A DNA stretch of 64,000 nucleotides from Isurus oxyrinchus (taxonomy: Eukaryota), in NCBI GenBank assembly GCA_026770705.1, contig JANJGN010000039.1:6262001-6326000 (forward strand). Direction: 5' to 3'. The notes beneath the pieces were generated by a model. That model did no database searches. It had not been told where the DNA came from and saw nothing but the letters and a program-made list of their open reading frames with translations. Within the stretch, counting starts at the first letter, position 1. Every line of letters begins with the position of its first letter. Both the position numbers and the translations under genes were made by a program. Positions 5,850 through 38,711 of this stretch are shown one piece after another.

Positions 5850-7810
5850 ACCATAAACGTTCCACATGATAATTACCGTGTTGGGGATATGTCAGGCTTG
5901 TGAATACATATTCCGGTTTGTGCACAACGCTGCTGCAGCTGATTGTTCACAGCGCCTCGTGAATGCCCAATTTTGAGTTGTTGAACACGTTGACATTTAC
6001 CTCTTTTAGCAGAATGTTTCTGCCACACAACACGATGGAGGGAATCCCCAAGTGAAGGCGGATTTTGTGTGCTTAGGAACTGTGCAACGGTCAATACTAT
6101 CAATACTGCCATGAGCATATCCACGTGGGTAGGTTATTGGGGCGAGTTCAGTTTTGTTTTTCCATCTTGTTAATTTCCTGACCACATGCAAAAGACCCAG
6201 TCTAGCAGTTTTCTTCATCACGCGGCCAGCTCGGCCATTAGTAGTGCTAGAGATTCTCTCTTCATTATAGCCACTGAAGCCCCCTACGTGGAGTATACTT
6301 TTTATTGCCATCCCAAAATCTTCCTCCATTGATGATCACTCATTCATCATCTGAGGTGATCGATAGGGCTTAATCAGCAGTGGACTTTCCTTGCCCAAGT
6401 TTTACCTGATGCCATGAGATTTCATTGAATTTCCAATTACTTAAACGGCTGTTTCAGATGCGTCACATTGAATATAAACGTTTTGCAACAATGGCATTTA
6501 AGAAAGCAACAAAAAATGAGCGATGCCTCGAAATGGGCTTGAGAATTTAGTTTTTAGATAAGATTATTTAACTGAGAGGTTGGTTTATGATGGAGATGAG
6601 CTTTGAAATCAATAAGAAGTATTAATCTGCAAAAGATAAACTGCTTGAATCGTTAAGGTAGCGGAACTACTGTCAATCAAGCAGGGTGCTTTGTCCTAGA
6701 TTAAGTCAATATTCTTGAATGTTATTGAAACATAACTCATCCAGACAAGTGTAGTAATTTCCAGTCACACTCTTGATTTGCGCCTTGTAGAAGAGAGATG
6801 GACTAAAAAACACGGAGTGTTTGTTGGATAATTATTTACTGTCAATGATCATTGCCTGTCTCTGGTGTAAGGCGAATATAACTTGTCGGTTTTCATCAGA
6901 CTTCTGGGTGCTGCCCAGGTCCTGTAAGTTACACATAGGCAAAGATTTCTTCAGCATCTGTTGAGTCGCAACTTTTGCTTAAGTTTGCGGAAATATGAAT
7001 GGATGCTATGTCCACCCCCGGCTCCCCAAACCCAAACCTTTTCTGAGCACATGATGGAGAGAGATTCAGTGATGAAGTGGATTAAGGTGGTTGCGCCCCG
7101 AACTATGACCTCAGCATCTCCTGAAGTGACATCAAGAGGCTGAGGTGGGTGACTTGCAAAAGTAAAAATCCTTTGTGCTCAGCATGACTCCAATCAGTGG
7201 AGACTCCCCCCAGCTCCTTACATGTATTGAATCAAATTTCACTTGCGATCCCTGCTACCATAAAATGACAAATGTTGCATTGATATGAAGCACAGTCGCT
7301 CTCGCATCACATCATGAGTTCAGCACCAATGTCCATATCTCTTTATCAAATCTGAACGAAGAGCTGGAGCTCAGACGAACAAATAATCAGCGTAAAGGCC
7401 GATATTTTAGCTGTACTATTACAACGTGGCTGGGAAGAATTTTCAGGGACACTGGTCTCCAATCCAATTGGTGAAATCTGACAGGGCCCCTATCCTCTGC
7501 ATCATCCAGCCCCTTCAGTCTTTTCTGTATATCACGCAATGTGAATCACATAGGCTGAAGACTGGCCCCTGCGATGTTGCCATCTTCAGGTGGAGACTGG
7601 AATGTTCTATCTACTCCGCACTTCAACCTCAATGTGGCCGCAAATTATTTAGCCATTTTTTAGCACTGATGTGCTGAGCTCCACAATCATTGCCAATGAG
7701 GATATGGGTGGAGTGTCCTCTGCAAGTGAGTTTTTTGAAATATGCAACAGCATTTAAGATAGCATGTGACAGGAAATCACGGCTGATATTTGCTTATTTG
7801 TTTGTGGGAC
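5850..7810 (-). mobile_element. Decayed CR1/L2-group LINE fragments, same family as 40945-44673
   Basis: Minus strand gives YKAQIKSVTGNYYTCLDELCFNNIQEY, a frameshifted version of YKAQVRSVMEYSPLAWMSAA. Endonuclease-region pieces (cagcctgacata) are shared with the plus-strand copy. Confidence 0.55.
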
Positions 7811-11869: not shown

Positions 11870-12095
11870 TGAATGGCGTTACAATTGTGATTCTTTTGCG
11901 AGGAAAGCATGGCCTCTGCAAATGCATTACATACTTTATGCTGGCAATGGCAGCGGCTGGTCTCCTTGTTGATTGTGCTGTTATCATACTGACCGTTTAA
12001 TTCTGGTCATTGAGGCCTGTGTGCCAGCTAGCTGCGACAATGCTTTGTGAGTCACATCAGACTCTTTCTGGTTAACATTGATATCTACCTTAATC
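11870..12095 (+). pseudogene. GPR139-like pseudogene C, truncated exon 2
   Basis: (CT)n-cctatAG acceptor, then (V)NGVTIVILLRGKHGLCKCITYFMLAMAAAGLLV with stop TAA at 11998-12000. Degraded PVC.. and TSDSFWLTLISTL follow (equivalent to ATDCSVWFTVTFTL). Homology ends at a Gypsy element. Confidence 0.75.
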
Positions 12096-24362: not shown

Positions 24363-25240
24363 TTAACTGAAAGGATATTTCAACATTTTCCACAACTGCT
24401 CCCTGAACCTAGTTTGTGTCACAGCATAAATCCAAGTGTTTGTGCAGCAACTAAGGAGCTGCAGCATGAAGCCCAATTCCAGAACAAAAAAATCTAGATA
24501 CAGGGAATTATAGCCTAAATCATACATCCGGATCCATATGGAAAAAAACATTAGCATTCCCCATAAAAGGATGAAATTGGCTGAAATATAAAAGAGTAAC
24601 ATGATCGATTTCTTTCGATTCTCCACCTCTGGGTCTTTGGGGCTTTGCCCAGTCCTGTGAGGCCGGAGTCTCATGCGGGCCCTGCTGGTCACTAAAATAT
24701 ACTCGACAGTAAAAATATTGATGAGCAGGATCAGCACAAATGGGACACACGGTGTTAGAATGTGATGGGTGAACTCGATTGTTGTCCAGACAGGATTGAA
24801 CAGAACCTCATTTCTGTAACCACAAAACCAGGGGAAGTTTACCATCCAGTACTGATCTGTGAGCAAAAAATACCAGAAAATGTTCTTTGAACAGCTCAGT
24901 GCAATGACGGTTCCCAGAATCACAGCTGCCGTTTTCTCCCTGCAATATTTTTGTTTCAGCTTCGGGCAACAAATGGCCACAAATCGATCCAAGGTAAAAG
25001 TGACAGTGAACCACACAGAACAGTCAGTGGCTGCATAAAGCAGGACAGCATGGATATTACACACTGGGATTGATCGCAGGAAAAAAAAATACTTAGCAAA
25101 CACAATTGGAATATGCCTCAGTATCAGGTCCAGGATAATGACGAGTAGATCAGCCACTGCCATGGCCTCCAGGTAACGGGTAATACAATTGGAGAGGCCA
25201 CAGCTCCGGCGCCTGAGTATCACAATCGTGACCAGGTTCA
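24363..25240 (-). CDS. GPR139-like: GPR139/GPR142-like class A GPCR gene A, coding exon 2 (end of TM1 to TM7/helix 8)
   Basis: Open 292-aa frame VNLVTIVILRRRSCGLSNCITRYLEAMAVADLL...SVWFTVTFTLDRFVAICCP...RKKSIMLLFYISANF...CCTNTWIYAVTQTRFREQL. It has successive hydrophobic helices, DRF in place of DRY, and the SVW-TV-F/LT-DR-AVC/AIC-P signature of GPR139/142. Acceptor ttccttgcAG lies at 25242-25241, phase 1. Confidence 0.9.
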
Positions 25241-28288: not shown

Positions 28289-28463
28289 CGCTGACACCAA
28301 CCAGAGCCAGGATGGGAAAGTAACCAACTTGGATTAACGAAATTACACCCTCGATCCGAACAGCTAATGATATCCGATCTTGAGAAAGATAGTAAAGCCC
28401 CGAGGATAAACTTCTGTCCATTTTTGTAAAATTCCAAGATTTTGTTCTAAGATTCTGATTCAT
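28289..28463 (-). CDS. GPR139-like: GPR139-like gene A, coding exon 1 (N-terminus and start of TM1)
   Basis: ATG at 28463 gives MNQNLRTKSWNFTKMDRSL...LIQVGYFPILALVGVS, followed by G|GTAAG (donor GT at 28288-28287). This is 58 codons + 1 nt, and G+TG makes the Val codon that joins exon 2 in phase. Spliced product ~350 aa. Confidence 0.85.
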
Positions 28464-28597
28464 TGTTGTCACGTTCCAATCTATTATTCTCAGGCTCTGA
28501 TGCTTTCTCTCCCCCTCTCAGGAGTCGTTGATCCTTGCAAGTACTGAATGCGACTGTCCCCCTGACATTCGGGGACAGCACGTTGAAATGAGCTTCG

Positions 28598-28648
28598 TAT
28601 AAATAGCACTGTTAAACCCTCCTGTGACACAATTAGGATCCAGGGAGA
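28598..28648 (-). promoter_or_regulatory. Putative proximal promoter of gene A: O/E(EBF)-like site, TAATTG homeodomain site and TATA-like TATTTATA
   Basis: Minus strand reads TCTCCCTGGAT-C-CTAATTG-TGTCACAGGAGGGTTTAACAGTGC-TATTTATA, ending ~135 nt upstream of the ATG. Motif match only. Confidence 0.45.
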
Positions 28649-29649
28649 TTGAAGTTAATAACAGGGACTGAACAAATTGGTTCAGTTAACGCCTTGCATT
28701 CCAACAATTTCTGCATCACAACTTGGTAGAACATTTACTTGGCTTGGATCGGATGTATGTTGGTCGCTAAGGGATGGAAGGCTGCGAATAGAGGTTTGAC
28801 TGACCATGACATGTAAATGTACCATGGAGTGATATCCGAGGACAGGAGAGTTTTAATTGTTCCACGCTGTTTATAAAATCAGAGTTACAAAGCAGAATGG
28901 AACCTGGATTGATGACCTCTTTTAAGAAATCATTTATTTTGAAATTGTTGGTTCCTTACTGAAATAATTCACAGGAGTCTGTTTTGACTTTGCAAGACTC
29001 GGAATAAAAATGTAATTAATCATGACCATATTACACCAGGCAACCAAACACTTGGTAAGTTTTCATTACAGAAACCATGAAATAAGTGGCAGAAAGTCAC
29101 GCTGCCCCTTTCATCCAACTAATGCCCTTATTAACCCAGGACCCCAGTGGCCAGGCACCATTATTTCTGCACCAAGGATAAAGAAGTTGATTTTCCAGTG
29201 ATCTTCTGAATATTCACTAGAAACAATTGCACAATTGGTATATCCCTTGAGATATCGAGAACACTCATTCTAAATTCACCTCTCCTTTAGTGTTAGAGGA
29301 TTATCCACCAGTTCCTTAAGAATCTGGCATCATGCCTAGCTGGAGAGAGACTGAGGCCTTTTCGTCGGGTCTTGACTCGTTGGCACTCTGATACCAACTG
29401 AAACTACAAGGTGATAGGCTCCTTGACTTTATGTATCTGTGCACCTCCTCCTGATGACCAGTTGCGAGTCAACAACGCAGTTGTATTTCCCACTTCATGT
29501 TTTAGATCTGACTTGCATAAATCACCAAATCCTTTATTAGCCAATGTCTTCATTTTAAGATTCGTAAAGCATTCATTATAATGTATACATCCAGACAATG
29601 CCCCAGGCTGGCCCGCCGGATGTCATAAAAGTCCAAACTAAAAATAAAT

Positions 29650-37825: not shown

Positions 37826-38711
37826 TTATTGTTTAATATGTTGAAGAAATTCGGGTGAAGAGATGTTGCAGCACTTTCTTAAATGCTATGTGAACTTAGC
37901 CTGGTCACTGCATAAATCCCAGTGTTTGTTCAGCAAATCAGGAGCTGCAGCATGAAGCCTATTTCCTGAACAAAACGATACAGATACATCGACTTATAGC
38001 CCAAATTCCACATCAGTCTCCAAATAGAATAAACAATTGACATTGAACACAACAGGAAGAAATCGGCTGAGATAACAGACAGAAAATGCATAGATTTCCG
38101 TCTGCTCTCACTCTATGGATCGCCGGGATTATCCCACTTCTGTGAGCCCGGAATCTCCTGTGTTCTCTGCCTTTCATTAAAATCTGCTTACCTGTGAAAA
38201 GACTAAGCAGCAGAATGATGGTAAATGGAAAACACAATGGAACTCAATTGCTATCCAGAACAGAGATTCGTGGTTATCCCATGCAAAATCACAGAAATCA
38301 GGGGCCGTTCATCAGCCAATATGGATCTGTTATCATAAAATAACAGAAAATGTTATTTGAACAGCTCAGCGCAATCAATGTTCCCAGAAGCACAGTGGCT
38401 ATTTTCTCACTGCAATATTCAGTTTTCAGCTTCAGGGAACAAATGGCCACAAATCCCCCAAAGGTGAAAGTGACAGTGAAACAGACAGGACAGTCTGTGG
38501 CTGCTTAAAGCAAGATGGTGTGGATATTACACACGTGGATGGAGTTCCAGAAGTAAAACTGTTCCTTAAACAAGAATGGAATGTGCCTTATTATCACATC
38601 AGGAATAACGACCATTCGACAGCCACAGCCATGGCCACCAGGTACTGAGTTACACATTTGGACAGACCACGTCTGTTGCTCCTCAGGATCACAAGCATGA
38701 CACCAAGTTCG
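37826..38711 (-). pseudogene. GPR139-like pseudogene B (exon 2), close paralog of gene A
   Basis: Acceptor ccaggcAG is followed by a colinear match to gene A exon 2 (ANL.., GLSKCVTQYLVAMAVA, RHIPFLFKEQFYFWNSIHVCNIHTILL*AATDC, FVAICSLKLKTEYCSEKIATVLLGTLIALSCS, EIGFMLQLLIC*TNTGIYAVT). It has several in-frame stops, frameshifts and a deletion in TM5. Confidence 0.9.

Follow-up and report, generated by a model that had tools for sequence, protein, structure and literature searches.

Promoter motifs upstream of gene A

On the minus strand of the window, the 64,000-nt stretch of Isurus oxyrinchus DNA analysed here, a receptor gene (gene A) is preceded by an O/E-like site next to a TAATTG homeodomain site and by a TATA-like word, which raises the question of whether the gene carries an olfactory-type promoter. 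Function of this stretch as a promoter is very probable from the sequence comparisons given below, by which the promoter is judged to be real, selected and a variant of the homeodomain/EBF grammar. The preferred reading, a conserved family layout through which a LIM-type homeodomain protein and EBF would switch the genes on in olfactory neurons or other chemosensory ones, is given very nearly an even chance.

The motifs and their spacing were found as the original prediction had placed them: TCTCCCTGGAT is followed by one C and by CTAATTG, the TATA-like TATTTATA lies 24 nt after CTAATTG, and the ATG at 28463 lies 135 nt beyond that, with CTAATTG ~170 nt before the ATG (Table 1). From the usual TATA spacing, transcription would start near 28575. 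The O/E match is as imperfect as had been stated, with 6 of 8 positions in the best register (TCTC-CC-TGGA) and a right half without the inner G. By chance, 64 kb should contain 1.8 cases of an O/E-like 10-mer (6 or more of 8 matches to TCCCNNGGGA) located 0-6 nt ahead of TAATT[AG]; the possibility of chance raised for the motif pair therefore holds for the pair alone, which is ordinary. It does not extend to the pair followed by a TATA-like word 15-35 nt on, which is found once in the window and in 0 of 60 second-order Markov simulations. Likewise, the description of a single instance is correct for the window and incorrect genome-wide, as at least ~100 relatives of the promoter can be recognised.

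Table 1. Features of gene A, its upstream region and related sequences in the window
Feature	Position	Strand	Description
Forkhead-like element	28669..28678	-	gene A AATTTGTTCA, weakened copy of family form TGTTTGTTCA
Second homeodomain-like site	28655..28662	-	gene A and closest paralogs GTTATTAA; family GTAAYTAA
Upstream O/E-like site	28638..28648	-	TCTCCCTGGAT; clade-restricted, possible second EBF site
Homeodomain site	28630..28636	-	CTAATTG; T[AG]ATT family-wide
Family-wide O/E-like dyad	28618..28627	-	gene A TCAC-AG-GAGG; family TCHC-NG-GAGR
TATA-like box	28598..28605	-	TATTTATA; family TATAAA
Upstream reading frame	~28568-28518	-	16 codons
Two copies of 42-nt unit	28418..28501	-	across 5′ UTR and start codon
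Gene A coding exon 1 (predicted)	28289..28463	-	58 codons + 1 base, ends in TM1; GT donor 28288
Gene A coding exon 2 (predicted)	24363..25240	-	AG acceptor 25241; 291 codons + stop; class A GPCR
Pseudogene B	37900-38701	-	second family member with stops and frameshifts
Short family fragment	11872-12045	+

Gene A and its receptor family

Gene A is predicted to encode a class A GPCR of 350 residues in two exons, as read from the GT/AG sites and the paralog junction, and its phase-1 exon junction recurs in paralogs. The protein matched PF00001 (E 1.5e-12) as the sole Pfam family, and its best PDB match was GPR139 (E 6.7e-7, 32 bits). Gene A is not an odorant-receptor gene: it matches PF00001 only, lacks 7tm_4 and is a GPR139-like class A GPCR instead.

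For GPR139 and GPR142 (PDB 7VUG, 9M42), the likeness lies in the best solved-structure match and in the database label in sharks and rays, since Atlas clusters holding family relatives carry the name 'probable GPR139', a label attached to relatives in sharks, a ray and a sawshark. The difference lies in the weakness of the match (E 7e-7, 32 bits) and in the thousands of candidates found here as against single genes; 'GPR139' is therefore a best-hit name and not a statement of orthology, and orthology of the gene A family with GPR139 was ruled out on low similarity and multi-copy state. No paper on this family was found in the literature covered, which includes a minority of subscription papers, and GPR139 is not mentioned in the part of PMC11979771 that was available.

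With four family queries, 7344-7776 first-look candidates were obtained in the 5.0 Gb genome, of which 121-134 were scored per query, so that the first-look totals are not copy numbers; at 70% identity or above, there were 134 scored matches among 7776 candidates. The family loci are clustered, in a birth-and-death arrangement. In every roughly drawn coding region, pN/pS was 0.28-0.47 (30 disjoint paralog pairs), indicating that the receptor family is under purifying selection. An apparently single-copy, conserved relative of the family (P0121, P0136, P0238) is present in teleosts, coelacanth, amphibians, turtles and catshark and would be the family's outgroup; for the bony-vertebrate relative (P0136 group), the search gave no named, studied gene.

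Conserved promoter layout of the receptor family

The promoters were compared among 100 family loci picked by hand for spread, with exon 1 located in 64 of 80 distant loci. The statistics are based on 68 genes (63 short-N-terminus genes, four long-N-terminus paralogs and gene A) in 18 clades at 65% identity, with a median pairwise protein identity of 50%. Excluded were 16 distant and nine long-clade loci whose slice contained no exon 1, three without exon 2, four near-duplicates, and L195, which has no homeodomain site. Background came from dinucleotide shuffles and from random positions within these loci. The p-values of the position tests are optimistic because the choice of test windows and of the degenerate motif followed inspection of the alignment, and the five long-clade genes, in which the homeodomain site served to place the TATA anchor, are non-independent in the TATA-anchored test.

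A five-part layout with fixed spacing is common to the 68 paralogs and 18 clades, consisting of a forkhead-like site, a second homeodomain-like site, T[AG]ATT, an O/E-like dyad and TATA; the consensus order in the alignment is TGTTTGTT, ACTGTAAYTAA, CT[AG]ATT, a pyrimidine/purine dyad and TATAAA, with the ATG ~70 nt on. The forkhead-like TGTTT[GA][TC] was found in 42 of 68 genes against a background of 2.4%, at a modal distance of 72 nt to TATA, and its core TTTGTTCA changes least within gene A's clade, in part through ascertainment. The putative label of this upstream-most element follows the forkhead consensus, as the other factor names follow consensus motifs of the respective factors; the EBF consensus was seen in the OMP probe. 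The second homeodomain-like site was present in 30 of 68 genes (background 2.6%), and T[AG]ATT at 26-33 nt before TATA in 38 of 68 (background 2.6-3.9%), the homeodomain-to-TATA distance being exactly 29 nt in 22 of the 36 TATA-anchored genes. At TATA-26..-17, 38 of 68 genes, representing 14 of 18 clades, matched the EBF consensus at 6 or more of 8 positions, compared with fractions of 0.024 in the background and 0.030 in the shuffles, and TATAAA is kept across the short-N-terminus clades. No more than 41 of 69 genes, and 12 of 18 clades, have the homeodomain core, which counts against the preferred reading.

A leave-one-clade-out test, which is less circular than the position tests, compared both flanks of TAATT with 4010 control T[AG]ATT sites: 9 of 12 clades had a 3′ flank ranking within the top 5% of these controls, as against 1 of 12 for the 5′ flank. 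The pairing of TAATT with an O/E-like element is thus conserved among paralog promoters for the dyad on its 3′ side and not for the upstream site that had been proposed, and the predicted grammar of homeodomain site, O/E-like site and TATA holds family-wide with rigid spacing once that upstream site is left aside. Neither the 3′-side dyad nor the forkhead-like site had been noticed originally. The layout, its fixed spacing and its retention across clades with ~50% protein divergence are counted as established, unlike the identities of the factors; in close paralogs (30 loci, 88-100% identity) the flanks are conserved too, and these loci therefore provide no test of the motif. Gene A itself has weakened forkhead-like and second homeodomain-like sites, the latter being lost in L006-L010, and its downstream dyad matches the EBF consensus at 5 of 8 positions only.

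Across the genome, the pattern of homeodomain site, dyad and TATA gave 148 matches against 48 in the control. Among the 100 matches listed, 33 belonged to one repeat, 7 were scattered and 60 lay on contigs rich in family genes; these matches included no clear non-family target, the 60 being judged by contig only. An abundant repeat (L248-L252 and other loci) carries CTAATTGCCCYT followed by GAG, a composite-like word with 22 hits in 1.69 Mb of fetched loci, and the occurrence of TAATT with a CCC..GAG word in such a repeat counts against the preferred reading. The repeat behind the 33 listed matches (L198-L227) is another interspersed one, which fits the homeodomain, dyad and TATA pattern by its own sequence.

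The upstream O/E-like site

As an O/E element of the family, TCTCCCTGGAT was not borne out: an EBF match upstream of TAATT is near background, in 6 of 68 genes (clade-mean 0.08 vs 0.025), and the conserved dyad lies 3′ of TAATT instead. In gene A's clade, the site takes the form TCTCCCTGGA in 21 promoters, TCTCCATGGA in 20, TG[TG]ACATGGA in 50 and other forms in 9, by a hand count of 100 listed out of 101 matches (0 in the control). The site has 2.1 changes per site against 4.2 in the upstream flank across 57 clade promoters, whose retrieval by motif biases the sample. At best, TCTCCCTGGAT is a possible second EBF site confined to gene A's clade.

That it is gene A's main functional O/E site is unlikely. 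Its match of 6 of 8 to the EBF consensus is better than that of gene A's downstream dyad, its substitution rate is half that of the flank, and in one case, L195 (G000:C93, ~873300), an improved form, TCCCCATGGA, is kept despite the loss of TAATTG and the dyad. These points are countered by the near-background frequency family-wide, by the replacement of the site with TG[TG]ACATGGA in half of the listed clade promoters, in a subclade that mostly keeps an open exon 2, and by a score of -2.3 on the family composite matrix when the site is read from the other strand. For mutation, the downstream dyad is the first target and the upstream site a secondary one. In L195, it was a promoter deletion that removed TAATTG and the downstream dyad, and TCCCCATGGA now stands ~26 nt before the TATA-like box, the usual distance.

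Comparison with mouse olfactory regulatory elements

In the mouse Sfaktiria probe, the EBF dyad is centred 12/13 nt from the T of TAATT (PMC5608512, supplementary file 7), and the J-element site, reconstructed from primers in the available part of PMC7804114, has its dyad centre likewise at 12/13 nt; the modal register of the downstream shark dyad is the same. With a matrix built from shark promoters only, the 3′ parts of the mouse Sfaktiria and J sites ranked in the top 4.8% and 0.6% of controls, respectively, in a comparison that comprises two sites, one of them reconstructed.

The shark promoter appears to resemble the Greek Island Lhx2/Ebf composite (Monahan 2017, PMC5608512; PMC7804114; PMC8213717) in the order of TAATT and a degenerate pyrimidine/purine dyad at 12/13 nt, and in the tolerance of non-consensus EBF halves at fixed spacing, which the accessible sections of PMC5608512 describe for the mouse composite. 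It differs in its proximal position, 29 nt from TATA on the upstream side and ahead of non-OR genes, and in adding the forkhead-like and second homeodomain-like sites. It has the homeodomain-dyad spacing of the Greek Islands and is not an intergenic enhancer, whereas the mouse composite is found in intergenic enhancers without enrichment in OR promoters, being enriched in enhancers relative to these promoters in the sections of PMC5608512 and PMC12547500 at hand; this counts against the preferred reading. According to the available part of PMC8213717, reporters are active in zebrafish olfactory neurons when driven by composite-bearing mouse TAAR enhancers.

With mouse OR proximal promoters (PMC3247239; PMC12547500), the shark family shares a homeodomain site, an O/E-like site and TATA within ~100 nt and membership of a large clustered GPCR family. 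In the available text of PMC3247239, O/E and homeodomain motifs are enriched in mouse OR promoters, as is TATA in a subset, and forkhead enrichment has 0 occurrences in that text, which also counts against the preferred reading. The shark family differs in its rigid order and spacing, in the forkhead-like site, and in the gene itself, which is of the GPR139-like peptide-receptor type with an intron in TM1 and no 7tm_4. A homeodomain site near the start is thus present, as is an O/E-like site near the start family-wide, and the gene downstream is not an OR.

Binding of a homeodomain protein and EBF at the promoter is considered likely. A LIM-type homeodomain protein, possibly of the Lhx2/Emx2 type, would bind CTAATTG, a dimer, presumably of Ebf, would sit beside it on the downstream dyad, and a Fox protein may occupy the forkhead-like site, with cooperative binding as predicted from the mouse Greek Islands. 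The bound promoter would then be active in olfactory neurons or in chemosensory neurons of another kind, and the upstream TCTCCCTGGAT may offer gene A's clade an optional further EBF site. In the dyad, position 3 is often A and GGG is often replaced by GAG; these departures, and the match of 5 of 8 in gene A, count against the preferred reading. A real, inherited promoter in which the block is bound by another factor (e.g., a TALE protein on TGTCA) or serves as a core-promoter element, its olfactory likeness being coincidental, is improbable; it would be in keeping with TAATTG-TGTCA in gene A's clade, with a dyad register that shifts by 1-2 nt from clade to clade (peaks at offsets 6 and 8) and with the small number of mouse composites compared. 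However, TGTCA is not retained beyond a few clades, and perfect or near-perfect EBF palindromes stand at the dyad in several clades (TCCC-AG-GGGA in L147, TCCC-TA-GGGA in L160 and TCTC-TT-GGGA in L129).

Shark OR and class C receptor genes

The 7tm_4 (PF13853) profile matched two loci in the genome, neither of them gene A. The intact shark OR has a splice acceptor directly before its ATG. Over 30 kb ahead of one OR-like locus and 20 kb ahead of the other, composite scores reached 14.5, several of them in repeats, with no obvious TATA partner near these hits; the OR promoter was not located in these regions.

Exon 1 could be located in 15 of the 25 class C loci inspected, comprising nine V2R-like genes and six that are taste-receptor-, CaSR- or GPRC6A-like, tentative labels that follow mostly from sequence features and clustering and that were checked in two cases. 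The V2R-like promoters have TATA 52-84 nt before the ATG, and fixed Fox, homeodomain or EBF sites were found in 0 of 9, which counts against the olfactory reading. A composite at a free position within 400 nt was in weak excess in these promoters (rank p 0.004 against 299 background windows, shuffle p ~0.016), with n=9 including one close paralog pair and two of nine significant singly; no excess was seen in the taste/CaSR-like promoters (p 0.17 and 0.21, n=5, one of the six being left out for too little upstream sequence). The excess in V2R-like promoters is a weak hint only. Shark V2R/OlfC genes (PMC10116579) are accordingly like the gene A family in TATA before the ATG and perhaps in this weak composite excess, and unlike it in the fixed sites.

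Expression and predicted cell type

Family-like contigs were present in 4 of 4 runs examined, out of 15 listed, including 3 of 3 presumed RNA runs from three studies without a tissue label; the contigs are mostly <90% alike on exon 2, and DNA content is possible, so that their presence could reflect broad expression or DNA carry-over. In these four runs no splice joint was seen in family-like contigs, and gene A was not found at a useful share in the RNA runs. The lack of contig cover upstream of 28595 is not taken as start-site evidence.

Expression of gene A in olfactory neurons, as predicted from its promoter sequence, is given slightly less than an even chance. In the available part of PMC10116579, catshark olfactory neurons are described as nearly all microvillous, with ORs unexpressed. 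The grammar is known from ciliated OR neurons, and this difference counts against the olfactory reading. Known receptors label 0.45-5.9 neurons per mm of catshark lamella in that text, sparse labelling that would leave room for more receptors, and the shark olfactory repertoire is described there as small and V2R-dominated.

The same homeodomain, EBF and Fox code may instead operate in non-olfactory sensory cells or neurons, a rather unlikely alternative for which cranial or skin sensory neurons, electro- or mechanoreceptors, gut or gill chemosensory cells and forebrain neurons, where GPR139 is expressed, are candidates. Several neuron types express Ebf, LIM-homeodomain and Fox factors together, the forkhead-like site is the most constant element, the V2R-like promoters are without a fixed module, and family-like contigs occur in the runs of three studies, all of which would suit such cells. 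Against these stand the spacing, which equals that of the olfactory composite, and the thousands of clustered copies, which would better suit a one-receptor-per-neuron system.

Expression in immune cells under EBF1 and FOXO-type B-lineage factors is very unlikely. EBF1 and FOXO1 are B-cell factors, immunity also has large variable receptor families, and the family-like contigs come from runs without a tissue label; but no B-cell signature with two TAAT-type homeodomain sites at fixed spacing is known, and pN/pS is below 0.5 in all regions.

Returning to the preferred chemosensory reading, we tentatively propose, at somewhat below an even chance, that the genes form a fifth shark and ray olfactory receptor family of hundreds to thousands of members, unrelated to OR, TAAR, V1R and V2R, with the Lhx2/Ebf composite recruited into each core promoter. 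If this is true, it would be a mistake to regard sharks as smelling with a few dozen receptors, and the Lhx2/Ebf composite would date to the jawed-vertebrate ancestor and work as a core-promoter element. An olfactory-style promoter before thousands of candidate receptors makes the view of a small, V2R-dominated repertoire directly testable.

Additional features of the gene A region

Pseudogene B and the short family fragment were without a detectable exon 1 in the window, and no promoter was found there for pseudogene B. The 42-nt unit at the start of gene A equals 14 codons and holds an N-x-T sequon and in-frame ATGs; it is present in 2 to ~5 copies among paralogs of the long-N-terminus clade (window; L066-L080), and the length of the N-terminus therefore varies. 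The upstream reading frame starts close to the predicted start site, is in frame with the main ATG and is stopped by TGA. In a slightly wider frame (28607-28597, minus strand), the TATA-like box reads CTATTTATAC, one base off a MEF2 consensus; a full MEF2 match is found in L025, and the form is limited to the gene A subclade. MEF2A motifs are mentioned for OR promoters in the available part of PMC12547500.
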